Source: Myxococcota bacterium (GTDB lineage: Bacteria > Myxococcota_A > UBA9160 > SMWR01). Taken from it: a stretch of DNA of 64,000 bases. Positions 18,725 through 34,160 of this stretch are shown here, piece by piece; the first letter of the stretch is position 1; each line of letters opens with the position of its first letter. The stretch is from assembly GCA_039030075.1 (NCBI GenBank), contig JBCCEW010000004.1, positions 25,826 through 89,825 of the forward strand, given 5' to 3'. The position numbers were made by a program, and so were the translations under genes. The notes under the pieces are model-generated. The model was not told the DNA's origin, made no database searches, and saw only the letters and a program-made list of their open reading frames with translations.

Positions 18725-19024
18725 CGCGGTGCCGCGAAGCGGCGGTGTGTCACTGGAACTTGTTCTCGGGTGCGCCTAACACGGCCTGCGTCCCTCCGCT
18801 CGTGGAACACGTTTCAACCCTCGCGCCTCCGTCAATCCCGCCGGACGATTCCGCTTCTTTTCCTACACCGCTTGGCGTTAGGGTGGTGGCGTGCGTAAGT
18901 CGGGAAGACCGACGTGCGCCCGCGGTGGAGATCTCCTTCGACCACCCGAGCGTTTCGCTGGACGGCTGAACCACGTCGGTTCGGTCGTCATGGTCCTTCC
19001 CGCTCCCATCCTGGAGGGATCTTC

Positions 19025-20179: not shown

Positions 20180-20216
20180 GGAGCGGAAACGCGTCCCTAT
20201 CGCGAGTGACCCAACC

Positions 20217-20255
20217 GAGGCCCGGGTGGCGATGCCGCCCGGGCCTCTTCTTTTC
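20217..20255 (+). terminator. intrinsic terminator-like hairpin after P1
   Basis: GAGGCCCGGG-tggcgatgccg-CCCGGGCCTC followed by TTCTTTTC. Confidence 0.6.
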
Positions 20256-20345
20256 GGGAATGCGCGAGACGCCGAAATGCGCCGTTGCTTCTCGGAGGGT
20301 GGGTCGGGGACAATGCGGGTCCCTCATCGCCCCACTGGAACCGCC

Positions 20346-21491
20346 ATGCAGACGCGTTTTCCAGCCCGCTGGCTTCCGCGCAAGTTCGCTTGCGTCGCTC
20401 TGTGGCTCGCCGTTGCCATCCCCGCGCAGGGGTTGGTGGTGGAGTTCGATGCCACCTACACGGCGGGCCTCGGTGATGGAGGGAACCCCGCCACGGTCGA
20501 CGTGGCGCCGAACGGAAGGCCCGCCTGCAATCAGGGCCTCCAACCGCATATCAACGCGTCGATCCCGGGTCACGGATTCGCCCAGCTCGGGATCACCGCG
20601 CCGCGCTCGTTGATGGCGGTGCGCCCCTTCCACTACGGCGAAGCCGGCCCCACGACCGGCAACGCGACGATCATGGCAAAGCCCGGAGTCGCGGGCGTGA
20701 ACGGTTTCGCGCGGTACACCTCGAGCACCTGCAGCGTCACCTTCCCAACGGCGTTCATTCCCAGGTTCTTCGACCTCACCCTGTTCGGGCGCTTCACGGC
20801 GCCCGCCCACAACGCCATCAGCACGACGACGACACCGATGGGCCGGATGAGTTTCATGGCCACGACCATGGGACTCGAATCCCATCACCTCCGCGCAGGC
20901 GGTGGCGGAGGCGATTTCAGCTTCATGATCCCGACGAGCCTCTCGTGGATGCAAACGATCATGGGAACTGCCGGCGCGAACACCTTCGGGGGCGGCTGGC
21001 GTGCCTCCGGTGGAGGACGCGAGCACTGGTGGTACCCGGTCGCACCGGGTCAGGTCGTCTCGGGCTACTGGCTGAGTGGTCCCTGGAAGTTCGGGCACAA
21101 CGAACCGGTGAATACCCAGATCGTGAGCGCATACGGGGTATTCACCAACCTGGGCACGATGGGCGTGTTCCCGGCGACCGCACGCTTCTGGAATGCCCGC
21201 TTCACGACGGGCATGGTGAAGGCCGAGGACCACGGCGGACAGTTCATCACGATCCGGACGCAGACCGGTGGCGACAACCGGACGGGCCCCCACTCGAGCA
21301 TGGGGACACTCCTCCTCGTCACGCCCTGGACGGCGAACGTCATCCCGTTCCTAGGAGTCACGACCCTCCATTTCGGCGGCACCGCGACCTTGCGCTTCGA
21401 TTTCCTGCCCGAGCCGGGGCCAACTGTGCTCCTCGCACTCGGCGTGGGCGCCGTGCTGGTACTCCATCTCCTCTCGCGGCGCGGTCACTAG
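20346..21491 (+). CDS. PEP-CTERM protein, paralog P2 (subtype B)
   Basis: Signal peptide; LVVEFDATYTAGLGDGGNPATVDVAPNGRPACNQGLQPH...; C-terminal FLPEPGPTVLLALGVGAVLVLHLLSRRGH. Confidence 0.85.
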   Translation: MQTRFPARWLPRKFACVALWLAVAIPAQGLVVEFDATYTAGLGDGGNPATVDVAPNGRPACNQGLQPHINASIPGHGFAQLGITAPRSLMAVRPFHYGEAGPTTGNATIMAKPGVAGVNGFARYTSSTCSVTFPTAFIPRFFDLTLFGRFTAPAHNAISTTTTPMGRMSFMATTMGLESHHLRAGGGGGDFSFMIPTSLSWMQTIMGTAGANTFGGGWRASGGGREHWWYPVAPGQVVSGYWLSGPWKFGHNEPVNTQIVSAYGVFTNLGTMGVFPATARFWNARFTTGMVKAEDHGGQFITIRTQTGGDNRTGPHSSMGTLLLVTPWTANVIPFLGVTTLHFGGTATLRFDFLPEPGPTVLLALGVGAVLVLHLLSRRGH

Positions 21492-21494
21492 ACG

Positions 21495-22646
21495 ATGGGT
21501 GCGCACAGACGATCCGGGTTTGGAGTCGTTGCCGTCATCGCCGCCGCGCTCCTTCTCCTCGATCTCGCTCCTGCGTCAGCACTGGTCGTCGAATTCGACG
21601 CTACCTACACCGCCGGCCTCGGCGACGGCGGGAACCCGGCCACGATCGACGTGAGGCCGAATGGTCGGCCCATCTGCAACAAACGCTTGCAGCCACACCT
21701 CAACGCATCGATCCCAGGCCATGGGTTCGCAGCGCTGGGGGCGACCGCGCCGCGATCGCTCATGGCAGTCCGACCCTTCCACTACGGAGAAGCCGGGCCG
21801 ACCACAGGCAACGCCACGATCATGGCGAAGCCGGGCATCGCCGGATCCAACGGCTTCGCGAGGTACACGACGGGGACGTGCACCCTCACCTTCTCGCCGT
21901 TCATTCCCCTGTGGAGGTACTCCGACTTTTTTGGGAGGTTCACGGCCCCAGCCAACCACGCCATCGCAACGACGACCACGTCGATGGGGCGCATGAGATT
22001 CATGGCCACGACCATGGGCCTGGAGTCGCACCATCTGCGGGCAGGCGGTGGACCGGGAAGCTTCAGCTTCATGGTCCCAGCAACCCTCTCGCCGATGCAG
22101 ACGATCATGGGGACGGCCGGCGTGAACACCTTCGGCGGCGGCTGGCGCGCCTCGGGTGGCGGACGTCGCAGCGACGCGATCAACGCTGCTCCGGGAGTCG
22201 TGGTTTCGGGCTACTGGCTCACCGGCCCCTGGAAGTTCGGGCACAACGAACCCGTGAACACCCAGCTCGTGACCCAGTTCGGCGTCTTCACGAATCTGGC
22301 CACGATGGGCACGGCGCAGGTGACGGTTCGGGTGTGGAACGCCCGGTTCACGACGGGCATGGTCAAGGCCGAGGACAACGGAGGGCAGTTCATCACGGTC
22401 CGCACCCAGACCGGTGGCGACAACCGCACCGGACCCCACTCGAGCATGGGGACGCTTCTGCTCGTCACGCCCTGGACCGCGAATGTGATCCCGTACCTCG
22501 GAGGCGCCGCCAACCTCTACTTCGGAGGCACCGCGACGCTGCGCTTCGAATTCCTCCCCGAGCCCGGCCCGACGGCGCTTTTCGCGCTGGGTGTCGTGGC
22601 GGTGCTGACGCTCCATCGAGCATTGCGAGGACGCGGTCGGTCATGA
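21495..22646 (+). CDS. PEP-CTERM protein, paralog P3
   Basis: Same conserved N- and C-terminal blocks; 3-nt spacing from P2. Confidence 0.85.
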   Translation: MGAHRRSGFGVVAVIAAALLLLDLAPASALVVEFDATYTAGLGDGGNPATIDVRPNGRPICNKRLQPHLNASIPGHGFAALGATAPRSLMAVRPFHYGEAGPTTGNATIMAKPGIAGSNGFARYTTGTCTLTFSPFIPLWRYSDFFGRFTAPANHAIATTTTSMGRMRFMATTMGLESHHLRAGGGPGSFSFMVPATLSPMQTIMGTAGVNTFGGGWRASGGGRRSDAINAAPGVVVSGYWLTGPWKFGHNEPVNTQLVTQFGVFTNLATMGTAQVTVRVWNARFTTGMVKAEDNGGQFITVRTQTGGDNRTGPHSSMGTLLLVTPWTANVIPYLGGAANLYFGGTATLRFEFLPEPGPTALFALGVVAVLTLHRALRGRGRS

Positions 22647-23809
22647 ACGGACTCCTCGTCCGGAGAACCGCGGCCCTCCTCGCTGCCCTCACCACGCTCG
22701 TGTGGCCCCTTTACAGTTGCGCGCTGGTCGTCGAGTTCGACGCCACGTACACGGCGGGACAGGGCGATGGAGGTAATCCCGCAACCTTCGAGAATGCGCC
22801 GAATGGGCGTCCTATCTGCAACAAGGGGCTCCAAGCGCACCTCAATGCATCGATCCCAGGTCACGGCTTCGCCGAGTTGGGTGGCACGGCACCGCGTTCG
22901 CTGATGGCCGTGCGCCCGTTCCGCTACGGGGAGGCCGGCCCCACCACCGGTAACGCCACCGTCATGGCCAAACCCGGTATCGCGGGTGCGAACGGCTTCG
23001 CTCGCTACACGACGCACACCTGCGTCGTGTCGTTTCCGCCACCGTTCCTGCCTGCGATCTTTCCGGACCGAACCCTGTCTGGACGCTTCACAGCTCCGGC
23101 AGACAACGCGATCACGACCACGACTACGACGATGGGCCGGATGAGCTTCATGGTCACCACGATGGGTCTCGAATCCCACCACCTCCGCGCCAGCGGCGGC
23201 CCTGGCGACTTCAGCTTCATGGTGCCCGCATCCCTCGAGCCGAACAACGCCTGGAGTGGCAGCCCGATGCAGGGAATCCAAGGGGAGGCGGGTCCCAACA
23301 GCTTCGGTGGGGGTTGGAGGGCGTCCGGGTTCCATCGCGACAATCTGCAGTACCTCTTCGGGCCGGTGGTCTTCTCCGGCTACTGGGTGAGCGGCCCCTG
23401 GAAGTTCGGGCACAACGAGCCGGTAAATACCCAGGTGGTGAGCCAGTTCGCGGTCATGACGAACCTCGCCACCATGGGCACCTTCCCTGCAACCGTGCGT
23501 GTCTGGAACGCGCGCTTCACCACCGGGATGGTCAAGGCCCTGGACAACGGAGGGCAGTTCATCACGATTCGCACCCAGACCGGTGGCGACAACCGCACCG
23601 GCCCGCACTCGAGCATGGGAACCCTCCTGCTGGTCACACCGTGGACGGCCAGCGTGACGCCTTGGCTGGGAGGCGCGGCCAACCTCTACTTTGGCGGCAC
23701 CGCGACGCTGCGCTTCGAGTTCCTCCCCGAGTCCGGCCCGACCGCGCTATTCGCGCTCGGAGCCATGACGGTGCTAGCCCTCCACTTTTTCTCGCGGCGA
23801 GATCGCTAG
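22643..23809 (+). CDS. PEP-CTERM protein, paralog P4
   Basis: Start MNGLLVRRTAALLAALTTLVWPLYSCA overlaps P3 stop (ATGA); conserved blocks; PEP-CTERM FLPESGPTALFALGAMTVLALHFFSRRDR. Confidence 0.85.
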   Translation: MNGLLVRRTAALLAALTTLVWPLYSCALVVEFDATYTAGQGDGGNPATFENAPNGRPICNKGLQAHLNASIPGHGFAELGGTAPRSLMAVRPFRYGEAGPTTGNATVMAKPGIAGANGFARYTTHTCVVSFPPPFLPAIFPDRTLSGRFTAPADNAITTTTTTMGRMSFMVTTMGLESHHLRASGGPGDFSFMVPASLEPNNAWSGSPMQGIQGEAGPNSFGGGWRASGFHRDNLQYLFGPVVFSGYWVSGPWKFGHNEPVNTQVVSQFAVMTNLATMGTFPATVRVWNARFTTGMVKALDNGGQFITIRTQTGGDNRTGPHSSMGTLLLVTPWTASVTPWLGGAANLYFGGTATLRFEFLPESGPTALFALGAMTVLALHFFSRRDR

Positions 23810-23812
23810 ACG

Positions 23813-24985
23813 ATGGGCGCACGAGAACGAGCGAAGCTCGGTGGCGTCGTGGCTTCCCTACTCCTCCTGGCGGGGTTCGACTCCGCGTCGGCGCTGGTCG
23901 TCGAGTTCGACGCCACCTACTCCGCCGGCCTCGGCGATGGTGGAAACCCTGCCACGATCGACGTGCAGCCGAACGGCCGTCCCGCCTGCAATAGGGGCCT
24001 CCAGCCGCATCTCAATGCGTCGATTCCGGGCCACGGATTCGCCGAGCTGGGTGCGACAGCGCCGCGCTCGCTCATGGCCGTCCGCCCCTTCCACTACGGC
24101 GAAGCCGGGCCCACGACCGGCAACGCGACGATCATGGCGAAGCCCGGCGTCGCGGGCGTGAACGGCTTCGCGCGCTACTCCACCGCGACCTGCATCCTCA
24201 GCCTGCCTCCGAACTGCTGCCCGATCCTGGTCATCGACCACACCTGGATCGGTCGTTTCACCGCACCCGCCGACAACGCCATCACGACCTCGACGACGAC
24301 GATGGGACAGATGAGTTTCATGGTGACGACGATGGGGCTCGAATCGCACCACCTGCGGGTGGGTGGAGGCCCCGGCGACTTCACGTTCATGGTTCCGACC
24401 TCGCTGGCGCCGGATCCCATGGGCCTGAGCCCAATACAGAGCTTGATGGGCGCAGCAGGGCCCCACACCTTCGGCGGCGGTTGGCGCGCCTCCGGCGGCG
24501 GCCGTGAACGGTTCGTGCTCAATGCGGGCGTTGGCGTGGTGCTCTCGGGATCCTTCACAAGCGGCCCGTGGAAGTTCGGTCACAACGAGCTGGTGAACAC
24601 GCAGCTCGTGAGCCAGGTCGGATCTTTCACCAACCTGGCGACGATGGGAGTCGCCCCGGTCACCCTGCGCATCTGGAACGCCCGCTTCACCACGGGCGTG
24701 GTGAAGGCCGAGGACAACGGCGGGCAGTTCATCACCATCCGCACCCAGACGGGGGGCGACAACCGGACCGGCCCCCAATCGAGCATGGGCACGCTGCTCC
24801 TCGTCACACCCTGGACCGCGAGCGTCATCCCCTTCATCGGGGGCGCCGCCAACCTCTACTTCGGCGGCACCGCCAACCTTCGCTTCGAGTTCCTCCCCGA
24901 GCCCGGCCCGACGGCGCTCCTCGCACTCGGAGTCGCCCTGGTGCTGGGGCTCCACAGGGTCGCCCGAAGAGAAAGAGACCGATGA
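23813..24985 (+). CDS. PEP-CTERM protein, paralog P5
   Basis: Conserved blocks; C-terminal FLPEPGPTALLALGVALVLGLHRVARRERDR. Confidence 0.85.
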   Translation: MGARERAKLGGVVASLLLLAGFDSASALVVEFDATYSAGLGDGGNPATIDVQPNGRPACNRGLQPHLNASIPGHGFAELGATAPRSLMAVRPFHYGEAGPTTGNATIMAKPGVAGVNGFARYSTATCILSLPPNCCPILVIDHTWIGRFTAPADNAITTSTTTMGQMSFMVTTMGLESHHLRVGGGPGDFTFMVPTSLAPDPMGLSPIQSLMGAAGPHTFGGGWRASGGGRERFVLNAGVGVVLSGSFTSGPWKFGHNELVNTQLVSQVGSFTNLATMGVAPVTLRIWNARFTTGVVKAEDNGGQFITIRTQTGGDNRTGPQSSMGTLLLVTPWTASVIPFIGGAANLYFGGTANLRFEFLPEPGPTALLALGVALVLGLHRVARRERDR

Positions 24986-26154
24986 GACGAACGCTGCTCC
25001 AGGCTCGAAGCGCGCGTGCCGCGATCGTGATCGGACTCTACCTTCTCGCGTGGTCCCTTCCTGCGTCCGCCCTGGTCGTGGAGTTCGATGCCACCTATTC
25101 CGCCGGCCTCGGCGACGGTGGAAACCCAGCCACGCTCGATGTGGGGGCGAATGGACGGCCGATCTGCAACAAGGGCCTCCAGCCGCACCTCAACGCTTCG
25201 GTCCCGGGTCACGGCTTTGCCGAGTTGGGTGCGACGGCACCGCGGTCGCTGATGGCCGTCCGCCCCTTCCACTACGGCGTAGCAGGGCCCACCACCGGCA
25301 ACGCAACGATCATGGCAAAACCCGGGATCGCCGGCCTGAACGGCTTCGCCCGCTACACGATGGCCACCTGCGAGGTGACGGTGCCGCCCCACGGCCTCCC
25401 CGTTCCCCAGGTGGACCACACCTGGATCCAACGCTTCACCGCTCCCGCGAATCACGCGATCACGACCACCACGACGCCTATGGGCCGGCGCAGCTTCATG
25501 GCGAACCTCGGGATCCTGGAGTCACATCACCTGCGCGCCGAGGGCGGCCCGGGCACCTTCAGCTTCGTGGTCCCGGAGTCCCTGGAGCCCGCCCCCTGGA
25601 CCGGCAGCCCGATGCAGGGAATCCAAGGGGCCGCGGGCCCGAACACCTTCGGTGGCGGCTGGCGCGCCTCCGGCGGAGGCCGCCAGCAGCAGCAGGTCAA
25701 TGCGGCGCCCGGCGTGGTGATCTCCGGCTATTGGTTGAGCGGTCCGTGGAAGTTCGGCCACAACGAACCCGTGAACACCGAGCTCGTGAGTGCGTACGGC
25801 GTGTTCACCAACCTGGCCACGATGGGCACCATGCCCTTGACCCTCCGCGTCTGGAATGCCCGATTCACGACCGGCGTGGTGAAGGCCGAGGACAACGGCG
25901 GGCAGTTCATCACCATCCGCACCCAGACGGGCGGCGACAACCGGACGGGCCCGCATTCGAGCATGGGAACGCTGCTGCTCGTCACCCCGTGGACGGCGAG
26001 CGTCATTCCGTTCCTAGGAGTCACGACCCTCCACTTCGGCGGCACCGCCACGCTGCGCTTCGAGTTCCTGCCCGAGCCCGAGCCGACGGCGCTATTCGCG
26101 CTCGGAGCCATGACGGTGCTGGCGCTCCACTTCGTCTCGCGGCGAGATCGCTAG
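24982..26154 (+). CDS. PEP-CTERM protein, paralog P6
   Basis: Start MRRTLLQARSARAAIVIGLYLLAWSLPASA overlaps P5 stop (ATGA); conserved blocks; PEP-CTERM. Confidence 0.85.
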   Translation: MRRTLLQARSARAAIVIGLYLLAWSLPASALVVEFDATYSAGLGDGGNPATLDVGANGRPICNKGLQPHLNASVPGHGFAELGATAPRSLMAVRPFHYGVAGPTTGNATIMAKPGIAGLNGFARYTMATCEVTVPPHGLPVPQVDHTWIQRFTAPANHAITTTTTPMGRRSFMANLGILESHHLRAEGGPGTFSFVVPESLEPAPWTGSPMQGIQGAAGPNTFGGGWRASGGGRQQQQVNAAPGVVISGYWLSGPWKFGHNEPVNTELVSAYGVFTNLATMGTMPLTLRVWNARFTTGVVKAEDNGGQFITIRTQTGGDNRTGPHSSMGTLLLVTPWTASVIPFLGVTTLHFGGTATLRFEFLPEPEPTALFALGAMTVLALHFVSRRDR

Positions 26155-26157
26155 ACG

Positions 26158-27354
26158 ATGGGCGCACGAGAACGAGCGAAGTTCGGTGGCGTCGTGGCTT
26201 CCCTACTCCTCCTGGCGGGGTTCGACTCCGCGTCGGCTCTGGTCGTCGAATTCGACGCTACCTACACCGCTGGCCTCGGCGACGGCGGGAACCCCGCCAC
26301 GATCGACGTGGGGCTGAACGGTCGGCCCGTCTGCAACAAGGGCCTGCAACCGCATCTCAATGCGTCGGTCCCGGGCCACGGCTTCGCCGAGATCGGGACC
26401 ACCGCACCGCGGTCACTGATGGACGTGCGACCCTTCCGCTACGGGGAGGCGGGTCCCACCACCGGCAACGCAACGATCATGGCGAAACCCGGGATCGCGG
26501 GCATGAACGGCTTCGCCCGGTACACGCCGGGCACCTGCGTCATCCCGTTCCCCACGCCATTTCTACCGGCGATCTTCCCGAAGCAGACCCCGTCCGGACG
26601 ATTCACGGCGCCCGCGGACAACGCCCTGACGACCACGACGACGCCGATGGGCCGAATGAGCTTCATGGCCACGACCATGGGCCTCGAGTCACACCATCTG
26701 CGCGCGGGCGGTGGTGGTGGCAACTTCAGCTTCATGCTCCCGGCGTCGTTGGCGCCCATCAACCCTTGGAGCGGTAGCCCCATGCAGGGCATCCGAGGTA
26801 CCGCTGGCCCGAATTCCTTTGGAGGCGGCTGGCGGGCATCGGGTGCACACCGCCACAACCTGCAGATCTTCGCGGCCCCGGGGGTCGTCTTCTCGGGGTA
26901 TTGGGCGACCGGCCCCTGGAAGTTCGGTCACAACGAGCCGGTGAACACGCAGGTCGTCAGCCATCTCGCGATCCTCACGAACCTCGCAACCATGGGAACG
27001 CTTCAAGCCACCGCGCGCGTGTGGAATGCGCGTTTCACCACCGGCATGGTGAAGGCCGAAGACAACGGCGGGCAGTTCATCACGGTTCGGACCCAGACCG
27101 GTGGTGACAATCGGACCGGGCCGCACTCGAGCATGGGATCGTTGCTGCTCGTCACTCCCTGGACGGCCAGCGTGGTCCCATGGCTCTTCGGCGCCGCCAA
27201 CCTCCACTTCGGCGGCACTGCAACGCTGCGCTTCGAGTTCCTGCCCGAGCCGGGCCCGACAGCCCTCTTCGTCGCCGGCACGGTCGCGATCTCCGTCCTT
27301 CACGCGTTCTTCCGTCTGCGGGCGACGCGCCGATCAGCGCGACGCGGAGAGTAG
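26158..27354 (+). CDS. PEP-CTERM protein, paralog P7
   Basis: Conserved blocks; C-terminal FLPEPGPTALFVAGTVAISVLHAFFRLRATRRSARRGE. Confidence 0.85.
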   Translation: MGARERAKFGGVVASLLLLAGFDSASALVVEFDATYTAGLGDGGNPATIDVGLNGRPVCNKGLQPHLNASVPGHGFAEIGTTAPRSLMDVRPFRYGEAGPTTGNATIMAKPGIAGMNGFARYTPGTCVIPFPTPFLPAIFPKQTPSGRFTAPADNALTTTTTPMGRMSFMATTMGLESHHLRAGGGGGNFSFMLPASLAPINPWSGSPMQGIRGTAGPNSFGGGWRASGAHRHNLQIFAAPGVVFSGYWATGPWKFGHNEPVNTQVVSHLAILTNLATMGTLQATARVWNARFTTGMVKAEDNGGQFITVRTQTGGDNRTGPHSSMGSLLLVTPWTASVVPWLFGAANLHFGGTATLRFEFLPEPGPTALFVAGTVAISVLHAFFRLRATRRSARRGE

Positions 27355-27556
27355 AAGAGCGGCAACCCTTCCTAGCGCCGCCCGCTGACCCCCAGCGAAT
27401 CCCCAGGACGCCCCGACACTGCGCGGGGTTAGTGTGGGCGCGTGTCGCTGGGGGGTGCCCGGCCCGCTCTTCGAAGGCCCGGGAGCCCAGCGCTCCTGGA
27501 CGCGAGGCGCGCCTCACCGGCGCGCTCGTCCCGCTTGCGCCACAGGAGGGAATCGC

Positions 27557-28711
27557 ATGAAGACAGAACGAACCTTCACGCACCGTGCCGTCGTGGCAGC
27601 CTTCACGATCGCCCTGATCACACTCGGCCTGCCGGCCACCGCAGCGATCGTGGAGTTCAATGCCACCTACACCGCCGGGCTCGGAGACGGCGGCAACCCG
27701 GCGACGATCGACAACTCGCCGAACGGCCTACCGATCTGCAACCAGGGTCTACAGCCCCACCTCAACGCGTCCATCACGGGCAACGGCTTCGCCGAGCTCG
27801 GTGCAGTCGGGCCACGCTCACTCATGGCGGTGCGCCCGTTCAAGTACGGGGACGCCGGCATGACCACGGGCAACGTCACCATCATGGCGCGGCCCGGGGA
27901 GCCGGGCGTCAACGGCTTCCCGCAGTACGCCTCGAACACCTGCGTCGTTCCGTTCCCCGCGGCCTTCTTGCCCGCGATCCTGGCCGGTCGGACTCAGCTG
28001 TCTCGCTTCACCGGACCGGCGGACGATGCAATCACGACGACCGTGACCCCAATGGGCAAGATGAACTTCATGGTCACCAACATGGGACTCGAATCCCACC
28101 ACCTCCGCGCGGGCGGGGGTCCCGGAAACTTCAACTTCAAGGTGGACCCCGCCCTCTCGCCGATGCAGACGATCATGGGCACCGCCGGCGCCAACACCTT
28201 CGGTGGCGGCTGGCGCGCTTCGGGCGGAGGGCGCGTGAACCTCGCGGTCAACGCGGCACCCGGTGTCGTGATCTCCGGCTTCTGGCTCACCGGCCCCCGG
28301 AAGCTCGGTCACAACGAAGCGGTGAATACCCAGCTCGTCACCCAGACGGGCCTGTTCACGAACCTGGCGACGATGGGCGTCGCGCCCGTGACGCTGCGCG
28401 TCTGGAACGCACGCTTCACGACGGGCATGGTGAAGGCCGAGGACAACGGCGGCCAGTTCATCACGATCCGCAGCCAGACGGGCAACGACAACCGGACGGG
28501 CCCGTCTTCCAGCATGGGAACGCTCTTGCTGGTGACGCCCTGGACGGCGAGTCTGATCCCGTTCCTCGGCGGTGCGGCCAACCTCTACTTCGGCGGGACC
28601 GGCACCGTGCGCTTCGAGTTCGTGCCCGAGCCAGGGCCGACGACCCTGCTCGCGGCGGGCGTCCTCGGCGTGATCGCGCTGCACCTGGGCGTGCGCCGCC
28701 GCCGCCGCTAG
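27557..28711 (+). CDS. PEP-CTERM protein, paralog P8 (subtype A, most similar to P1)
   Basis: RBS AGGAGGG upstream of MKTERTFTHR...; AIVEFNATYTAGLGDGGNPATIDNSPNGLPICNQGLQPH...; C-terminal FVPEPGPTTLLAAGVLGVIALHLGVRRRRR. Confidence 0.85.
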   Translation: MKTERTFTHRAVVAAFTIALITLGLPATAAIVEFNATYTAGLGDGGNPATIDNSPNGLPICNQGLQPHLNASITGNGFAELGAVGPRSLMAVRPFKYGDAGMTTGNVTIMARPGEPGVNGFPQYASNTCVVPFPAAFLPAILAGRTQLSRFTGPADDAITTTVTPMGKMNFMVTNMGLESHHLRAGGGPGNFNFKVDPALSPMQTIMGTAGANTFGGGWRASGGGRVNLAVNAAPGVVISGFWLTGPRKLGHNEAVNTQLVTQTGLFTNLATMGVAPVTLRVWNARFTTGMVKAEDNGGQFITIRSQTGNDNRTGPSSSMGTLLLVTPWTASLIPFLGGAANLYFGGTGTVRFEFVPEPGPTTLLAAGVLGVIALHLGVRRRRR

Positions 28712-29132: not shown

Positions 29133-29294
29133 TGAAGAACCGATCGACGTACAAGCGCCATTCGATCGCCGCGAACGCGGCGGGCGAAGAGATCGCGCGC
29201 TCGCTCGGTTGCGGTGCTTCTTGGCGAACTCCGCATGCCGGCCGTTTCGCGCCCGCACTCGTCGGCCCGTTCGCCTTGGTGGATCCGAAGTAGC
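29133..29294 (+). CDS. small hypothetical ORF (53 aa) upstream of the tRNA array
   Basis: Strong RBS AAGGGGAG 7 nt upstream of ATG; preceded by TTGACA-like -35 at 29074; not in supplied track because under 60 aa. Confidence 0.3.
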
Positions 29295-29441
29295 GATCCG
29301 CGTCTGATTCCCGTTGGAGCCAGGACCTCCTAGCGCCGGAATCGGCGCGAAGGAGGTTTCTCTCTTTCGGGTTGTGTTCGCGCTCGAGGCGCGGGCTCGC
29401 TGGCGGCGTCGCCGCGGCGAACAGAACAGCCCTACGCATAC

Positions 29442-29517
29442 GCCGCATTGGCTCAGTGGCTAGAGCATCCGCTTGTCGAGCGGAAGAGCGCGGGTTCGAA
29501 TCCCGCATGCGGCGCCA
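29442..29517 (+). tRNA. tRNA-Asp (GTC)
   Basis: Cloverleaf: acceptor GCCGCAT/ATGCGGC, D GCTC-AGTGGCTA-GAGC, anticodon loop TTGTCGA, T-arm GCGGG-TTCGAAT-CCCGC, encoded CCA. Confidence 0.85.
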
Positions 29518-29523
29518 GTTCAC

Positions 29524-29600
29524 CAGGGTGTAGCTCAGTCGGGAAGAGCTCTTTCTTCGGAAGGAAGCGGTCGTTGGTTCGAATCCAACCACCCTGACCA
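29524..29600 (+). tRNA. tRNA-Pro (CGG)
   Basis: Acceptor CAGGGTG/CACCCTG, anticodon loop TTCGGAA, canonical T-loop TTCGAAT, CCA. Confidence 0.85.
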
Positions 29601-29601
29601 G

Positions 29602-29678
29602 GCCGGGGTAGCCCAATCGGCAGAGGCGACGGTCTTAGACACCGTTCAGTGTGGGTTCGAATCCCACCTCCGGTACCA
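29602..29678 (+). tRNA. non-canonical tRNA with anticodon TAG (Leu-decoding): class-II-like 3-bp D-stem but short 5-nt variable loop
   Basis: Acceptor GCCGGGG/CTCCGGT (2 G.U), D-arm GCC-CAATCGGCAGA-GGC resembling tRNA-Leu, anticodon stem ACGGT/ACCGT with loop CTTAGAC, variable TCAGT, T-arm GTGGG-TTCGAAT-CCCAC, A73, CCA. Confidence 0.6.
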
Positions 29679-29684
29679 GTTTTC

Positions 29685-29760
29685 ATCGGCGTAGCTCAGA
29701 GGACAGAGCACCGCTCTGCGAAGGCGGAGGCCGCAGGTTCGAGTCCTGCCGCCGATACCA
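29685..29760 (+). tRNA. tRNA-Arg (GCG; G34 where bacterial Arg tRNAs normally carry A34)
   Basis: Acceptor ATCGGCG/CGCCGAT, anticodon loop CTGCGAA, T-arm GCAGG-TTCGAGT-CCTGC, CCA. Confidence 0.7.
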
Positions 29761-29785
29761 GGATCCCAACAGAGGAGACGTTCGT

Positions 29786-29874
29786 TCCGTGGTGGCGGAA
29801 TTGGCAGACGCACCGGGTTGTTACCCCGGCGCCCGACACCGGGCTTGCAGGTTCGAGGCCTGCCCACGGAGCCA
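29786..29874 (+). tRNA. non-canonical class-II tRNA (long variable arm, Leu-like D-arm) with anticodon GTT (Asn-decoding)
   Basis: Acceptor TCCGTGG/CCACGGA, D-arm GCG-GAATTGGCAGA-CGC (near-identical to E. coli tRNA-Leu D-arm), anticodon stem CCGGG/CCCGG with loop TTGTTAC, 17-nt variable arm with GCCCG-ACAC-CGGGC stem-loop, T-arm GCAGG-TTCGAGG-CCTGC, G73, CCA. Confidence 0.6.
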
Positions 29875-29875
29875 G

Positions 29876-29950
29876 GCCGACATAGCTCATCGAGCAGAGC
29901 ACCTGTTTCGTAACCAGGAGAGCGGGGTGCAAGTCCTCGTGTCGGCTCCA
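29876..29950 (+). tRNA. tRNA-Thr (CGT), T-loop TGCAAGT (G55)
   Basis: Acceptor GCCGACA/TGTCGGC, anticodon loop TTCGTAA, D-loop lacks GG, T-arm CGGGG-TGCAAGT-CCTCG, CCA. Confidence 0.7.
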
Positions 29951-29955
29951 CAACA

Positions 29956-30030
29956 CGCGCGGTAGCTCAGGAAGCAGAGCGCCCGGTTGAAGCCCGGGAG
30001 GCGCTGGTGCGACTCCAGCCTGCGCGACCA
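29956..30030 (+). tRNA. tRNA-Phe (GAA), T-loop TGCGACT (G55)
   Basis: Acceptor CGCGCGG/CTGCGCG, anticodon loop TTGAAGC, T-arm GCTGG-TGCGACT-CCAGC, A73, CCA. Confidence 0.75.
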
Positions 30031-30062
30031 GATTCGATCGATTGGAGAAGTCGTTTGAAACA

Positions 30063-30129
30063 TGCGGAGAGACTCGGAGTCGACCCGGCGTCATGAGCCG
30101 GGGGAGCGGGTTCGACTCCCGCCTCCGCG
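30063..30129 (+). pseudogene. degenerate tRNA-Met-like element (anticodon CAT) with truncated D-arm, no encoded CCA
   Basis: Anticodon arm CCGGC-GTCATGA-GCCGG, T-arm GCGGG-TTCGACT-CCCGC, acceptor TGCGGAG/CTCCGCG, but only 15 nt between acceptor and anticodon stem (tight GACTC-G-GAGTC hairpin instead of a D-arm). Confidence 0.4.
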
Positions 30130-30134
30130 AGTTC

Positions 30135-30209
30135 GTCCACGTGGTCCAGCAGCACGGATTCCGGGTTCTCACCCCGGAGACGCGGGTGCAAACCCCGCCG
30201 TGGGCACCA
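30135..30209 (+). tRNA. tRNA-Glu (CTC), T-loop TGCAAAC (G55)
   Basis: Acceptor GTCCACG/CGTGGGC, D-arm GTCC-AGCAGCAC-GGAT, anticodon loop TTCTCAC, T-arm GCGGG-TGCAAAC-CCCGC, CCA. Confidence 0.75.
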
Positions 30210-30213
30210 GTTC

Positions 30214-30289
30214 TGGCGAGTAGCTCAGAGGAAAGAGCGCCGGTCTGATATGCCGGAGGTCGGGGGTGCGAGGCCCTCCTCGCCAACCA
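30214..30289 (+). tRNA. tRNA-Ile (GAT), T-loop TGCGAGG (G55)
   Basis: Acceptor TGGCGAG/CTCGCCA, anticodon loop CTGATAT, T-arm GGGGG-TGCGAGG-CCCTC, CCA. Confidence 0.75.
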
Positions 30290-30315
30290 GGATTCGAAAC
30301 AGAGGAGAACACTTC

Positions 30316-30390
30316 ACCGTCGTAGCTCAACGAATAGAGCGCCGCGCTTCGGACGCGGAGGATGGGGGTTTGAATCCCCCCGACGGTTCC
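30316..30390 (+). tRNA. tRNA-Arg-like (TCG) with D-loop lacking GG and T-loop TTTGAAT (T56)
   Basis: Acceptor ACCGTCG/CGACGGT perfect 7 bp, D-arm GCTC-AACGAATA-GAGC, anticodon stem CCGCG/CGCGG with loop CTTCGGA, CCA. Confidence 0.55.
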
Positions 30391-30396
30391 ATGCCA

Positions 30397-30469
30397 GGCG
30401 GACGTAGCTCAGGTGGCAGAGCGCCGGCGTGCCACGCCGGAGGCCGCGGGATCGAAGCCCGCCGTCCGC
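30397..30469 (+). tRNA. tRNA-Gly (GCC), T-loop ATCGAAG (A54), CCA not encoded
   Basis: Acceptor GCGGACG/CGTCCGC, D GCTC-AGGTGGCA-GAGC, anticodon loop GTGCCAC, T-arm GCGGG-ATCGAAG-CCCGC, U73. Confidence 0.7.
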
Positions 30470-30471
30470 TC

Positions 30472-30547
30472 CTGGGGGCAGGCGCAATCGGAAGCGCATC
30501 CGGATCTGACCCGGAAGGTTCGGGGTTCGACTCCCCGGCCCCCATCC
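30472..30547 (+). tRNA. tRNA-Gln (CTG)
   Basis: Acceptor TGGGGGC/GCCCCCA, D GCGC-AATCGGAA-GCGC, anticodon stem TCCGG/CCGGA with loop ATCTGAC, T-arm CGGGG-TTCGACT-CCCCG, CCA. Confidence 0.8.
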
Positions 30548-30556
30548 AAAGACGCA

Positions 30557-30629
30557 CAGGGTGCCCGTCGGCTGCGGCCCGGGGACTCCAAATCCCGCGG
30601 AGGAGGGATCGACACCTTCGCACCCTGCC
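30557..30629 (+). tRNA. tRNA-Trp (CCA) with shortened atypical D-arm and A54 T-loop
   Basis: Acceptor AGGGTGC/GCACCCT (like E. coli tRNA-Trp), anticodon loop CTCCAAA identical to E. coli Trp, T-arm GAGGG-ATCGACA-CCTTC, G73 CCA; only 14 nt for the D-arm region. Confidence 0.6.
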
Positions 30630-30636
30630 AAGAACA

Positions 30637-30713
30637 CGGTGGTCGTAGCTCAACGGGCGAGAGTGCCGCTCTGTGACTGCGGAGACCCGGGTTCGAGTCC
30701 CGGCGACCGCCCC
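30637..30713 (+). tRNA. tRNA-His (GTG) with G-1
   Basis: Extra 5' G(-1) opposite C73, acceptor GTGGTCG/CGACCGC, anticodon loop CTGTGAC, T-arm CCGGG-TTCGAGT-CCCGG, CCA. Confidence 0.8.
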
Positions 30714-30728
30714 AACCCGAAAGACACG

Positions 30729-30803
30729 CTGAGGCGTAGCTCGAAGGCAGAGCAACCGATTCTTAATCGGTGGGGTGTGGGTTCGAGTCCCACCGCCTCA
30801 ACC
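30729..30803 (+). tRNA. tRNA-Lys (CTT)
   Basis: Acceptor TGAGGCG/CGCCTCA, D GCTC-GAAGGCA-GAGC, anticodon stem ACCGA/TCGGT with loop TTCTTAA, T-arm GTGGG-TTCGAGT-CCCAC, CCA. Confidence 0.85.
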
Positions 30804-30954
30804 AACCACACCGCGCGATGCGCGCGAGAAGGAGACACGAACGAGGTCAGCGTGGGCGGATCGTCGCCAGCGGAGCCGGTTCTGCATGCCGGCCTGGCGC
30901 GCGGGAGCTGAGAATCGCTCTGGCGCGTACCCGCGACGGACGCAGCGCTTGCCG

Positions 30955-31030
30955 GCATGGATAGCTCCAGTGGAAGAGCAACGGTTTGTCACACCGTGGG
31001 TCGTCGGTTCGAATCCGACTCCAAGCGCCA
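30955..31030 (+). tRNA. tRNA-Asp (GTC), second copy
   Basis: Acceptor GCATGGA/TCCAAGC (one A-A mismatch), D GCTC-CAGTGGAA-GAGC, anticodon stem ACGGT/ACCGT with loop TTGTCAC, T-arm GTCGG-TTCGAAT-CCGAC, CCA. Confidence 0.7.
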
Positions 31031-31095
31031 CTGCCTTCGAAGCAGTCCAATGGTCACGGCACCCGCCGCGGGGTTCGACTCCCCACCAACAAGAG
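31031..31095 (+). other. tRNA-like remnant (anticodon-arm-like CTGC-CTTCGAA-GCAG hairpin plus T-arm-like CGGGG-TTCGACT-CCCC) without a complete acceptor stem
   Basis: Contains GGTTCGACTCC T-loop consensus but cannot be folded into a full cloverleaf; directly abuts the last tRNA. Confidence 0.3.
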
Positions 31096-31426
31096 AAAGA
31101 AACGGGAGGCCCTCCCGCGTCACGGCGCGGAGTCGGTCGGGTGGCGACGCGGTCCTGGCGCTCGCCGCCCGGGTGGCGATGCGAGTGACGCAGCACCGGA
31201 GCGGCCCCGAGCCCGCGCCGCTGCCCGAGCCTGGTCGGTCGCAGCCGGCGGCGAGGAGCCGACCCGGCCCCACTGGTCGGCTCCGCAACCGCCACAAACG
31301 GTTCATCCGGCGCGAGCAAGCGCAGGGCCCGCCGCTCCGGTGTGGAGGGCCTCCCAACCCAACGATTTCCGAGGAGCGAGAGGGTCTCGCACCTCGCCAC
31401 ACACGAAGACCCTGGAGGTCGAGAAC

Positions 31427-32575
31427 ATGCGCAAGCTGTGGAAGCTCTACACGAAGTGGGAGATCGCGGATCACGAGCGCGGTCTGCTCTTTCAGCGCGA
31501 CAACTTCGTCCGCGTGCTGATGCCGGGTACGCACCGGCTCGCGGACCCGTTGGGCCGCATGCACGTGGACAAGTACGACCTCACGAATCCGGTGTTCGAG
31601 CACCCGATCGATGAGTTCCTGGTCAAGACGCACCCGGAGCTCGCGGATCACCTGACGGTGGTCGAGCTGGGTGACCGTGAGGTGGGTCTCGCTCACGTGG
31701 ACGGCAAGCTCGCCGACGTGCTGGCGCCGGCGACGCGGACGATCTTCTGGAAGGGCCTGCACAAGGTGCGGGTCCACGTCCAGGACGTGTCGGACGACTT
31801 CGCCGTGCCGCGCGAGATCGTGGGTCTGCTAGGTCGAGCGCTACCGCTGACGCGGCTGGCGAAGGCGGTCGAGCTGACGCACGTCTCGGACGGCCACGTG
31901 GGCCTGCTGCTGGTGGACGGCGTGCTCGAGCGCGTGCTCGAGCCGGGCGCGCACGCCTTCTGGAAGTGGGGCCGTGGGCTCCAGGTGCGACACCTGGACC
32001 TGCGACTCCAGAGCCTGGAGGTGTCGGGCCAGGAGATCCTGTCGAAGGACAAGGTCAGCCTGCGTCTCAACCTGACGGCGGGCTTCCGGGTCACTGACCC
32101 GGAGCGCGCCTTCCACGCGGTGCCGGACTTCGCGGACTTCCTGTACAAGGAGCTGCAGTTCGCTCTGCGTGAGGCGGTGGGTACACAGACCCTGGACGAG
32201 ATCCTCGCCAGCAAGGACGAGCTCGGCCAGTCGATCCACCGACAGGTCCGAGCGCGTGCGACGGAGGTCGGCCTCGAGGTGTCGAGCGTCGGTGTGAAGG
32301 ACATCATCCTCCCGGGTGAGATGAAGACACTGCTCAACCAGGTGGTGGAGGCGGAGAAGCAGGCGCAGGCCAACCTGATCCGCCGCCGGGAGGAGACCGC
32401 GGCCACGCGGTCGCTTCACAACACGGCGAAGATGCTCGAGCGAAGCCCGACGCTGCTCCGGCTCAAGGAGCTGGAGGCGCTGGAGAAGGTCACCGAGCGG
32501 ATCGACAAGCTCACCGTCTTCGGTGGTCTCGACGGCGTGCTTCACCAGTTGGTGAAGCTGGGCGACGGCGACTGA
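31427..32575 (+). CDS. SPFH/band-7 (slipin-like) domain protein, apparently cytoplasmic, with duplicated N-terminal about 60-aa repeat
   Basis: RBS GGAGGTCGAGAAC-ATG; band-7 core ...VSLRLNLTAGFRVTDPERAFHAV.DFADFLYKELQFALREAVGTQTLDEILASKDELGQSIHRQVRARATEVGLEVSSVGVKDIILPGEM... followed by coiled coil; no N-terminal TM helix. Confidence 0.75.
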   Translation: MRKLWKLYTKWEIADHERGLLFQRDNFVRVLMPGTHRLADPLGRMHVDKYDLTNPVFEHPIDEFLVKTHPELADHLTVVELGDREVGLAHVDGKLADVLAPATRTIFWKGLHKVRVHVQDVSDDFAVPREIVGLLGRALPLTRLAKAVELTHVSDGHVGLLLVDGVLERVLEPGAHAFWKWGRGLQVRHLDLRLQSLEVSGQEILSKDKVSLRLNLTAGFRVTDPERAFHAVPDFADFLYKELQFALREAVGTQTLDEILASKDELGQSIHRQVRARATEVGLEVSSVGVKDIILPGEMKTLLNQVVEAEKQAQANLIRRREETAATRSLHNTAKMLERSPTLLRLKELEALEKVTERIDKLTVFGGLDGVLHQLVKLGDGD

Positions 32576-32684: not shown

Positions 32685-34160
32685 ATGGCCAAGCGTCGAC
32701 GACGCGCTCGGCTGCGACCGCGGCTAGCGGTACCGCACCGGGTGGCAAAGCACATCGAGCGGCTCGGACTCTACGACGCGGCGGACTACCTGGCTTGGTG
32801 CCGCGCTCGGGGGTTCCGCGCGTGTGTGCAAAAGAGCTTCGCGGAGCTCGAACAGGAGTGGTGCGTCCACGGTCGCGACCTCGTTCGCGCGCGCTTTCGC
32901 TATCGCAAGGACCGCAAGCCCGGCCGCATGATCGCGGATGTTTGCGCGGGGCGCGCGGTGGCGGGCGATCTCGCGCGGCCCCGGTGGCGCAGCCTCGCGG
33001 AGCGGATCGAGCGCGCCCGGCTGGCTCCGGCCGCACGTCGCGCACTGCGCACGCTCGTCGAGATCTGCGATCGCAAGGGCGACCTGCTCCTCGCCGAAGG
33101 AGTCTTCGGGCACGCCCACTACGCGTTCGTCGACGGCTTGATCGGTCTCAGCCGCCATCATCGATCCTGGCTGCGCTCCCCCCAGGCATGGTGCGTGCGC
33201 ACCCACAACGCGCGGCGGCAGTTCGCCTCGCTCAGTCGACACCTCCTGGCGCGCTACCCCGTGCCGGCGTTTCTCGATGCTGCCTGGCTACGTGACGACC
33301 GCGCCGCGGGCGCCTACCGAGATTGGTTCGTGCGCGTGGGAAACGGACGGAGCCTGCGACGGGTCGCCGCACCCATCACCCTCAGCCACCGCATCGTGCA
33401 CCACTTCCTGGGGGCACCCGAGCACTACTCGATCGAGCAGGCCCTGCGCCGCGGACAGATCCGCGCATCGGGAGGCGACGACCGTCTGGTAGACGCCGTC
33501 GCCGGAACGAGGCTCGGCGACCACTTCCAGCACGAAGCGTTCTGGGCGACCGTCCTCGCGTTCCTCGCGAGGAACCCGGAACTCGACTCCAGCCAGGTCG
33601 GCCCGATCGTCGACTACCTGCACCACCAGCGATTCGTCGAGCGGGACGTCTTCGTAGCCCGCGGAGAACGACGTCGGCTTCCGGCGCCTCAGCCTCACCT
33701 GTCGATGAAGGGACGCCGACTGTCCGTTCTGTTGCGTCAGGTCGCTCGCTGGCATCGGGAACTCGCGCGGAGCGGTCCGGGAGCCAGCATCCGCTGGAAG
33801 CCCAGTGGCATCGGGGCACTGGATTTCGAGACGGGGGTCCCCGGCAAGAGCCTGCGCGTCTGGCGGATTCGGGAACTCCTGTCGGCCTCCGAGCTGCGCC
33901 GCGAAGGCAGCGTGCTGCGCCATTGTGTCGCCAGCTACGCCGGCGCGTGCGCATCGGGGAGTGCGTCGATCTGGACCATGGAACTCTGGAGCTTCGAGGG
34001 CGTCCAGAAGCGCCAGACGATCGAAGTCAGCCCGAACCGGGTGATCGTCCAGTGTCGCGGCCGCTTCAACCGCGATCCGAACGAACAGGAGCGGCAGATG
34101 CTGTCGCGCTGGGCCCAGCAGGAGATGCTGACGATCAGTCGCTTCGTCGCGACGGCGTAG
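32685..34160 (+). CDS. PcfJ-like protein (family common on conjugative elements and phages)
   Basis: C-terminal ELRREGSVLRHCVASYAGACASGSASIWTMELWSFEGVQKRQTIEVSPNRVIVQCRGRFN matches the PcfJ-like domain consensus (..EG..M.HCV.SY......G..SI..L.........T.EV.....V.Q.RG..N). Confidence 0.65.
   Translation: MAKRRRRARLRPRLAVPHRVAKHIERLGLYDAADYLAWCRARGFRACVQKSFAELEQEWCVHGRDLVRARFRYRKDRKPGRMIADVCAGRAVAGDLARPRWRSLAERIERARLAPAARRALRTLVEICDRKGDLLLAEGVFGHAHYAFVDGLIGLSRHHRSWLRSPQAWCVRTHNARRQFASLSRHLLARYPVPAFLDAAWLRDDRAAGAYRDWFVRVGNGRSLRRVAAPITLSHRIVHHFLGAPEHYSIEQALRRGQIRASGGDDRLVDAVAGTRLGDHFQHEAFWATVLAFLARNPELDSSQVGPIVDYLHHQRFVERDVFVARGERRRLPAPQPHLSMKGRRLSVLLRQVARWHRELARSGPGASIRWKPSGIGALDFETGVPGKSLRVWRIRELLSASELRREGSVLRHCVASYAGACASGSASIWTMELWSFEGVQKRQTIEVSPNRVIVQCRGRFNRDPNEQERQMLSRWAQQEMLTISRFVATA

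Follow-up and report, generated by a model that had tools for sequence, protein, structure and literature searches.

In the textbook account, the only bacterial transfer RNAs (tRNAs) with a long variable arm, referred to as class II, are those for leucine, serine, tyrosine and selenocysteine. Leucine tRNAs with a short variable loop (class I, or type I) are nevertheless an already known and common type. The type I tRNALeu(CAA) of Streptomyces coelicolor, with a loop of 5 nt, is leucylated by its own leucyl-tRNA synthetase (LeuRS) and not by that of Escherichia coli, and both ScoLeuRS and SazLeuRS charge type I tRNALeu, whereas EcLeuRS does not (PMC6614811). Dense arrays of tRNA genes have also been described: arrays such as that of Anabaena are termed L-arrays and spread horizontally, the Anabaena L-array is induced under translational stress with 23 of its tRNAs charged in vivo (PMC8421152), and mycobacterial arrays are regarded as putative anti-defence elements, the tRNAs of which differ from the chromosomal tRNAs in the D, anticodon and variable arms (PMC12803027). 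Here, we describe a tRNA array in a 64 kb stretch of DNA from a Myxococcota bacterium (contig JBCCEW010000004.1; this whole stretch of 64,000 nucleotides is referred to as the window), in which a tRNA-Leu(UAG) has a short variable loop and a tRNA with the asparagine anticodon GUU has a long variable arm. The array and the two genes in question are as follows.

29442..31030, + strand: tRNA array; 16 genes called by ARAGORN on a single strand, about 10 genes per kb
29602..29678, + strand: class I tRNA-Leu, anticodon UAG; called by ARAGORN as tRNA-Leu(tag), with a Leu-type 3 bp D stem, A73 and an encoded CCA
29786..29874, + strand: class II tRNA, anticodon GUU; called by ARAGORN as tRNA-Asn(gtt), with a 17 nt variable arm and an Asn-type acceptor end

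Both genes are conserved, structurally constrained and syntenic, and they lie in arrays that cover the amino acids. On the basis of sequence comparisons, we consider it probable, although by no means certain, that both are working isoacceptors in a horizontally spread and putatively supernumerary array of the L-array type, which bacteria share with large phages. The bodies of these tRNAs would have been remodelled while the features read by the synthetases were retained, and a spare set shaped unlike the housekeeping tRNAs would stay usable when nucleases or toxins cut the housekeeping tRNAs, or under translational stress. An initial annotation of this DNA had described both tRNAs as mismatched to their anticodons and had proposed mischarging, decoys or decay; as shown below, its interpretation is partly supported.

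Anatomy and conservation of the two tRNAs

The minimum-free-energy fold of the tRNA-Leu is a cloverleaf, and that of the tRNA-Asn is a cloverleaf with an extra 5 bp variable stem. Against the Rfam family RF00005, with a gathering score of 29, the two genes score 57.8 bits (E = 5e-11) and 47.7 bits (E = 3e-8), respectively. The anatomy given in the initial annotation was confirmed: the tRNA with UAG is class I, with A73 and a D-arm of the Leu type, and the tRNA with GUU is class II, with G73. The tRNA-Leu starts with a G1–U72 pair, and its D-arm, GUAGCCCAAUCGGCAGAGGC, has the architecture of E. coli leuV, with a 3 bp D stem (GCC/GGC), a C13–A22 mismatch, U8–A14 and the Leu-type placement of G18G19; the anticodon loop is CUUAGAC and the variable loop is UCAGU (5 nt). 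It has the Leu-type core and the A73 of a bacterial tRNA-Leu, the latter being present in 132/143 class I tRNA-Leu genes of phage arrays, and it lacks the long variable arm of a class II body.

The acceptor end of the tRNA-Asn consists of U1–A72, C2–G71, C3–G70, G73 and an encoded CCA, its anticodon loop is UUGUUAC, its variable arm is C-GCCCG-ACAC-CGGGC-UU (17 nt) and its acceptor/T architecture is the standard 7/5. The near-identity of its D-arm to that of E. coli tRNA-Leu, which had been noted from the sequence, was confirmed with leuV taken by coordinates: the D-arm, GTGGCGGAATTGGCAGACGC, agrees with leuV at 19 of 20 positions. When the two tRNAs were compared by BLAST with 5,426 E. coli genomes, nothing was returned at E <= 10, the queries being too short for a search of that size. 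The variable arm leaves one nucleotide unpaired on the 5' side and two on the 3' side, which is the geometry of leuV and the mode for Leu, compared with 1/1 for Ser and 1/3 for Tyr. The stems of both genes are fully paired with the sole exception of position 13–22, and this position is likewise unpaired in each of the 37 sequences aligned for the Asn lineage (described below) and in the L210 and L268 orthologues of the tRNA-Leu.

Two metagenome contigs, L210 (with 21 tRNAs) and L268, carry an orthologous array in the order Ala-Asp-Pro-Leu-Arg(GCG)-Asn-Thr-Phe-Ser-Met-Glu-Ile-Val-Arg(UCG)-Gly-Cys-Tyr-Gln-His-Lys-x, and the order in the window is the same. The search for homologous arrays that had been suggested thus recovered both odd members, the class I Leu and the class II Asn, in the same slots of both contigs. 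The orthologue of the tRNA-Leu is a 77 nt class I tRNA-Leu(CAG) with 88% identity, and the orthologues of the tRNA-Asn are 87 nt in length with 90% identity and anticodon GUU; the differences are located mostly in loops. In comparisons by blastn and tblastn, the nucleotide homology with L210 covers 29282–32575 of the window, comprising a leader, the array and an SPFH gene, and the flanking genes are unrelated. Together with its Trp-like gene, L210 covers all 20 amino acids, and in it the class I gene is the sole tRNA-Leu and the class II gene is the sole tRNA-Asn.

Two technical explanations of the mismatch, both of which the initial annotation had named as possible refutations, were not borne out. 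Both tRNAs have an anticodon loop of 7 nt that includes U33 and A37, and there is thus no alternative register in which isotype and class would agree. A sequencing error in the anticodons was rejected, since the L210 and L268 orthologues of the tRNA-Asn likewise have GUU and the Leu slot has CAG, which is still a Leu anticodon. An intron in the long tRNA-Asn was also rejected, as the extra sequence is located between the anticodon stem and the T stem, where it folds into a hairpin with covarying pairs.

The same observations bear on the explanation that the two genes are decaying pseudogenes in a dead, horizontally acquired array. This would be in line with the absence from the window array of five genes of L210 (Ala, Ser, Val, Cys and Tyr), with the two stem mismatches in the L268 copy of the tRNA-Asn and with the promoter scan, in which no sigma-70-type consensus was found. 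However, the stems of both genes are paired apart from position 13–22, which is unpaired lineage-wide, the Rfam scores are well over the threshold, the slots are conserved in L210 and L268 with differences confined mostly to loops, and the lineage shows extensive compensatory change, at 16 of 17 variable pairs. Decay is therefore already largely refuted, and we regard it as extremely improbable.

The class I body of the tRNA-Leu has a wide distribution in phages. The structural pattern of a class I tRNA(UAG) occurs in at least 120 viral contigs; a 14-base pattern gave mostly chance matches in coding sequences of viral contigs, and later scans used 19 bases. When ARAGORN was applied to the first 30 viral loci, at least 24 were found to be tRNA-Leu(tag) of 74–78 nt inside a phage tRNA cluster, and these genes have in common the D-arm GUAGCCCAA..GGCAGAGGC, an NCAGU-type loop and A73. 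The window gene also matches 707 GenBank phage records, with at least 80% of the query covered in 122; the full-length phage matches listed are around 80% identical and are annotated as tRNA-Leu, including genes of the cultured phages Bacillus phage TsarBomba and Pseudomonas phage ZC03. In the arrays gathered via the Asn pattern described below, a sample that is unbiased for Leu, 28 of 48 tRNA-Leu genes are class I, whereas class II is kept by Ser (42/43) and Tyr (23/23). Together with the Streptomyces tRNA, these counts contradict the premise of the initial annotation that all bacterial tRNA-Leu are class II.

Since some LeuRS enzymes do not need the long arm (PMC6614811), a loop of 5 nt does not exclude charging with leucine, and with a LeuRS that needs neither arm nor anticodon a tRNA that has kept A73 and the Leu D-arm should be leucylated. 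We therefore see in this gene a tRNA of consistent Leu identity rather than a candidate for mischarging: it would have shed the long variable arm while keeping A73 and the Leu D-arm, and it would be leucylated and read CUA and CUG.

Lineage and amino-acid identity of the long-armed tRNA-Asn

Relatives of the tRNA-Asn were sought with a pattern in which a Leu-type D-arm is joined to a GUU anticodon loop, so that GUU was required by the pattern. In 185,579 species genomes it was found at nine places, three of which are class II tRNA(GUU) genes (L191, L193 and L196), with L191 being part of an 18-tRNA array in an alphaproteobacterial metagenome-assembled genome; a further one, L197, which lies in a 22-tRNA array from Planctomycetaceae, has the same D-arm with a short loop. 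Metagenomes gave 73 places, and IMG/VR gave eight viral contigs of 84–208 kb, six of which have the length of a contig from the metagenome set and probably duplicate it. Parsing left 41 distinct Asn-type genes, around 30 with arms of 13–18 nt and 11 with loops of 5–7 nt, and most of the 41 lie in clusters of 5–31 tRNAs.

Filtering left 37 distinct sequences, which were aligned. In this alignment 99.5% of the cells are paired, a percentage that is inflated, since pairing was itself the criterion by which the parser placed the acceptor and T arms; the variety of pair types does not depend on this. Double-sided changes occur at 16 of the 17 variable pairs, and the covariation score is 0.787, compared with 0.18 in shuffles and at most 0.14 with slid partners. 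The variable arms themselves covary, with stems such as GCC/GGC, CCC/GGG, GAGA/UCUC and GUCC/GGAC that are often capped by GNRA loops. G73 is present in all 37 aligned members (37/41 before filtering), U1–A72 in 31/37 and the GUU that the pattern required in 37/37. In 18 of the 22 arrays having at least 10 tRNAs, the long tRNA-Asn is the sole decoder of Asn codons. One member belongs to a cultured phage, Brevundimonas phage vB_BgoS-Bajun, in which an 86 nt gene with U1–A72, G73 and CCA is annotated as tRNA-Asn, and the T arm of this gene is identical to that of the window gene. The window gene is one of a little-noticed lineage, at least 37 distinct genes in number, whose sequences are public and of which one cultured phage has an annotated copy. 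No published description of a class II tRNA-Asn was found, which is provisional as the literature searched was incomplete, and a keyword search of a review of non-canonical tRNAs found no passage on it.

The identity of this tRNA was first considered from its body. Anticodon-masked sequence profiles built from phage-array tRNAs were used in place of the tRNAscan-SE isotype models, and with its anticodon masked the window gene scores best as class II Leu (33.6 bits), whereas Asn scores below 9 bits and is outside the top four; the body is therefore not that of a class I tRNA-Asn, and the disagreement that the initial annotation had led one to expect, with the isotype model on one side and the anticodon on the other, is real. 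The acceptor end and the anticodon give a different answer. The gene has G34, U35 and U36, G73 and U1–A72, as in bacterial tRNA-Asn, and ordinary tRNA-Asn genes of phage arrays agree with this acceptor end (U1–A72 in 39/55 and G73 in 47/55). It is unlike the acceptor ends of Leu (A73 in 34/36), Ser (a GGA start) and Tyr (A73) in phage arrays. The A73 of tRNA-Leu is replaced by G73; the long arm and G73 are shared with tRNA-Ser, but C2–G71 stands in place of G2–C71, the D-arm is of the Leu type and the arm geometry is 1/2. In E. coli, the anticodon and G73 transplant Asn identity into a foreign tRNA body, and U1–A72 is a determinant for the amidation of Asp-tRNA(Asn) by GatCAB (Giege and Eriani, PMC9976931). 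Furthermore, G73 is an antideterminant for LeuRS (E. coli) and TyrRS, and C2–G71 is an antideterminant for SerRS (PMC9976931). With GUU, G73 and U1–A72 in place and with antideterminants against LeuRS, TyrRS and SerRS, charging with asparagine would be expected. The tRNA-Asn would then consist of a Leu-derived core with a long variable arm in which GUU, G73 and U1–A72 were kept, and it would be charged with asparagine, either directly or via Asp-tRNA(Asn), and read AAC and AAU.

The alternative is that this tRNA mistranslates, deliberately or in a tolerated manner, with LeuRS or SerRS charging it through the Leu-type core and arm and some AAC and AAU codons being translated as Leu or Ser, in parallel with the nev-tRNAs of nematodes. 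In its favour are the masked profile, the D-arm agreement with leuV, the Leu geometry of the variable arm and the fact that LeuRS ignores the anticodon. In addition, ScoLeuRS accepts A73G with 66–83% efficiency (PMC6614811), Leu is the only amino acid charged onto nematode nev-tRNAs that have the anticodons of Gly and Ile (PMC3333845), and a few singleton genes (L223 and L206) join this body and GUU with A73 and G1–C72. On the other hand, the window gene and 37/41 members of its lineage have G73, whereas 49/51 tRNA-Leu genes of like arrays have A73; U1–A72 with a UCC start is the Asn acceptor signature; and the antideterminants given above stand against LeuRS, TyrRS and SerRS. Moreover, most arrays have no Asn decoder apart from the long tRNA, and the rest of the L210 set has one tRNA per amino acid. 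The Asn determinants and the status as sole decoder favour cognate charging, which from these features appears to be more likely than mischarging, and we consider mistranslation by the window gene unlikely. The mischarging proposed in the initial annotation is thus not favoured for either tRNA.

Two further groups of sequences were encountered in the searches. L223 and L206 are stand-alone genes with G1–C72, A73 and a class II Leu body, yet with anticodon GUU; unlike the window gene, they are genuine candidates for reading Asn codons as Leu. Nine loci (L195, L198, L199, L153, L225, L227, L247, L211 and L243) are Acidobacteria-type tRNA-Leu-like genes with A73 and a Leu D-arm that matched the search pattern by chance via UUGUUAG; they have an insertion of around 40 nt at the anticodon loop, which may represent a short intron or an enlarged loop.

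A proposed purpose of the remodelling and the array context

Cleavage of tRNAs is a feature of many bacterial defences, and escape from tRNA-targeting nucleases would be, as we infer, the reason for the remodelling. Phage tRNAs for Lys, Thr and Asn rescue cells from the PARIS nuclease AriB (PMC12409363), and a survey of long arms in 89 phage arrays, which were not selected on the isotypes examined, showed that, among tRNAs that are normally class I, long arms are concentrated in those with U36 in the anticodon (20/393 versus 6/609 for the others; Fisher p = 1.2e-4). The long-armed shares are 7/22 for Ile-UAU, 6/58 for Thr-UGU, 4/58 for Asn-GUU and 2/36 for Lys-UUU, and long Lys(CUU) genes also exist, for example one of 84 nt in Caulobacter phage Ccr29. 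The overlap of the long-armed isotypes with the target set of AriB (Lys, Thr and Asn) is suggestive. More generally, genes of 82–95 nt for Ile(UAU), Thr(UGU), Lys(UUU/CUU), Gln(UUG), Cys and Arg(UCU) are found repeatedly in arrays of phages and bacteria, as seen at L016, L020, L022, L026, L039, L063 and L102 (phage arrays), at L218, L234, L235 and L252, and at 1125–1208 of L274.

In its strongest form, this idea would make class switching an evolved immune evasion of phages and mobile arrays, with a Leu-type core and a long arm added to Asn, Lys, Thr and Ile(UAU) and the arm removed from Leu. Defence nucleases would then fail to recognise the tRNA, while the acceptor end and the anticodon would preserve its identity for the synthetase; PARIS AriB (for Lys, Thr and Asn) would be one candidate, and enzymes that read the class II variable arm would be others. 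We put this form forward tentatively, as possible rather than likely.

The other members of the array bear on whether these genes serve in decoding. The array order is Asp, Pro, Leu, Arg(GCG), Asn, Thr, Phe, Met, Glu, Ile, Arg(UCG), Gly, Gln, His, Lys and Asp, and the total is 16–19 genes within 1.6 kb, comprising the 16 called by ARAGORN and up to three atypical ones. CCA is encoded in 14 of the 16, and 15 of the 16 score 47.7–73.6 bits against RF00005, and 15 of the 16 have 0–1 mismatches over 21 stem pairs. The acceptor ends of most of the other tRNAs fit their anticodons by published rules (PMC9976931): Pro has C1–G72 and A73, Thr has G1–C72 and C2–G71, Gly has a GCG start and U73, His has an encoded G-1 and C73, and Gln has U1–A72. 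The departures are few, such as U73 in Gln and Arg(UCG). The anticodons mostly have G34 or C34, in keeping with the 68% GC of the window, and the anticodon loops are often off consensus at positions 32 and 38.

A role outside translation would make these RNAs decoys or sponges for nucleases or toxins, regulators, or donors for aminoacyl-tRNA-dependent enzymes, with no part in decoding. The positions 32 and 38 just mentioned are compatible with such a role, as are the non-standard RNAs in the array (a Trp-like gene, a CAU tRNA with a 6 bp anticodon stem and a 115 nt element, which are listed below) and the weak expression of arrays elsewhere in normal growth. Yet the anticodon, the discriminator, the first pair and the encoded CCA are all kept, and a decoy would not need all of these; the G34 and C34 anticodons suit a host with 68% GC; and array tRNAs of Anabaena are aminoacylated in vivo (PMC8421152). 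The decoys proposed in the initial annotation come close to the anti-defence view of arrays, which nuclease-resistant substitute tRNAs would fit better, and we consider a purely non-translational role very unlikely.

Several points weigh against the reading of the two genes as working isoacceptors that were remodelled for evasion. The link between long arms and nuclease evasion is a correlation, and the window tRNA-Asn is without the U36-A-A-U motif near the AriB cut site, having U-A-C-C instead. Class IIb synthetases such as AsnRS and AspRS approach the tRNA from the variable-loop side, where an arm of 17 nt could hinder them. The best masked profile of the tRNA-Asn is, as described above, that of class II Leu, and a LeuRS that ignores N73, such as ScoLeuRS (PMC6614811), could leucylate this Leu-shaped body despite G73. 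The inflation of the paired percentage and the missing promoter consensus count on the same side, and the window array may be eroding, given the five genes lost compared with L210.

The remaining features of the array region are as follows.

29282..29372, + strand: conserved leader of around 90 nt 5' of the array, with a terminator-like hairpin at 29348–29369
29361..29436, + strand: slot of tRNA-Ala(CGC) in L210 and L268; in the window, an unrelated, strongly folding non-tRNA sequence
30061..30130, + strand: atypical tRNA(CAU) with a 6 bp anticodon stem, a tiny D-arm and a 3 nt variable region; CCA not encoded
30557..30630, + strand: Trp-like tRNA with anticodon loop CUCCAAA, G73-CCA and non-standard D and T arms
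30840..30954, + strand: Y-shaped structured RNA of 115 nt between tRNA-Lys and the last tRNA
30986..32575, + strand: SPFH/Band_7-domain gene (Pfam PF01145, E = 2.3e-29)

The leader may be a regulatory element, and from its slot tRNA-Ala(CGC) appears to have been lost or replaced in the window. The tRNA(CAU) has a weak, tRNA-Sec-like Rfam match and is kept in L210 and L268; its features recall a tRNA-Pyl-like architecture. The Trp-like gene, which was not called by ARAGORN, has a 4 nt D loop and an 8 nt T loop without the usual motif; its minimum-free-energy fold is cloverleaf-like, its Rfam match is weak and it is around 90% conserved in L210. The 115 nt RNA, which consists of a long stem and two hairpins, has a fold z-score of -2.0 and is 86% conserved in L210; it matched no Rfam family, and one hairpin resembles an anticodon arm, the loop being UCUGCAU here and UCUGUAU in L210. 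The final tRNA (30955–31030) has an orthologous body in L210 (4963–5035), but the anticodon loop is UUGUCAC (Asp GUC) in the window, whereas that of L210 is CUAAUCC (called as Ile AAU); both have an A–A mismatch in the acceptor stem.

The SPFH gene has 71% amino-acid identity to that of L210, and the homology stops exactly at 32575, the stop codon of the gene; its true start probably lies 3' of the last tRNA, judging from the L210 homology, which begins at around 31271. It appears to be co-inherited with the array. A PcfJ-like gene (32685–34160) follows it in the window only. Directly upstream of the array, 18914–28711 contains eight tandem paralogues of around 390 amino acids with a signal-peptide-like N-terminus and 64–79% mutual identity; a ninth, diverged paralogue lies 14 kb away at 42310–43317, and the tandem is absent beside the orthologous array of L210. 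These paralogues had no match in Pfam, NCBIfam or PADLOC; for the SPFH and PcfJ-like proteins, too, PADLOC and NCBIfam returned no useful result. The window otherwise has chromosomal gene content of an ordinary kind, including cytochrome P450s, TetR regulators, a CarH-like MerR/B12 regulator, a DUF4388 response regulator and sigma factors. Among the 53 window open reading frames scanned against Pfam there was no aminoacyl-tRNA synthetase, integrase or phage structural gene, so that neither a synthetase dedicated to the array nor a prophage context is supported.

Comparison with known systems

If class switching is an immune evasion of the kind put forward above, the class II tRNA-Asn would form a fourth family of class II isoacceptors in bacteria, natural and fully functional. 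A conserved, covarying class II Asn lineage, long-armed Lys, Thr and Ile(UAU) tRNAs and the widespread class I Leu tRNAs show that structural class is more plastic on mobile elements than has been assumed. The lineage may be viewed as a natural identity experiment, in which a Leu core is combined with an Asn acceptor end and anticodon and with antideterminants against the three synthetases for class II tRNAs, and the overlap of the long-armed isotypes with the PARIS targets provides a testable idea for the odd shape of array and phage tRNAs. Annotation pipelines will flag such probably functional genes as isotype mismatches or pseudogenes, and the scaffolds may serve as orthogonal tRNAs.

Among described long-armed tRNAs, the nev-tRNAs of nematodes (Hamashima et al. 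2012, PMC3333845) resemble the window tRNA-Asn in being class II and tRNA-Leu-derived with the anticodon of a class I amino acid; however, they keep the Leu determinants and are charged with Leu, whereas the window tRNA has an Asn acceptor signature and antideterminants and is of bacterial or phage origin. The tRNA variants of phage T5 are similarly mobile-element copies of an isoacceptor unlike that of the host, and their isotypes overlap the long-armed set (Asn, Lys and Thr), but they escape by point substitutions at around positions 39–41, while the window tRNA, known from its sequence, differs by a whole arm and a foreign core. The allo-tRNAs and selC*-type tRNAs (Mukai et al. 2017, PMC5389517) are also bacterial or phage tRNAs mined from metagenomes, with long arms and unexpected anticodons; they have an 8/4 or 9/3 acceptor/T architecture and Ser or Cys identity, in contrast to the standard 7/5 of the window tRNA.

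The tRNA-Leu is closest to the S. coelicolor type I tRNALeu(CAA) (PMC6614811) and to the 74–78 nt phage tRNA-Leu, with which it shares an NCAGY loop of 5 nt, the Leu D-arm, A73 and a Leu anticodon. It differs in having UAG and in its location in a chromosomal array of Myxococcota, and leucylation is experimentally established for the Streptomyces tRNA, whereas the window gene is known from sequence. The Streptomyces type I tRNA is not charged by the E. coli enzyme, so that the function of such a tRNA depends on the LeuRS of the host.

With respect to the array as a whole, an L-array is a long array on one strand that is supernumerary and spread by horizontal transfer (Santamaria-Gomez et al. 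2021). The window array lies on one strand, the same module occurs in another gene context and phages carry the same tRNA types; as judged from 64 kb, it is a candidate supernumerary array. The L-arrays (PMC8421152) and the tRNA array units (PMC4758250; Mycobacterium) share with the window array a dense, single-strand arrangement that covers most amino acids and occurs sporadically, varied chromosomal contexts and tRNA types in common with phages. By the definition of an array unit (Tran et al. 2016, PMC4758250), at least 20 genes at no fewer than two per kb, the window array has the density but falls short in number. A keyword search of the array papers (PMC8421152, PMC4758250 and those on Mycobacterium arrays) retrieved no passage that mentions class-switched members. 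Finally, unlike the known arrays, that of the window is linked to an SPFH gene.

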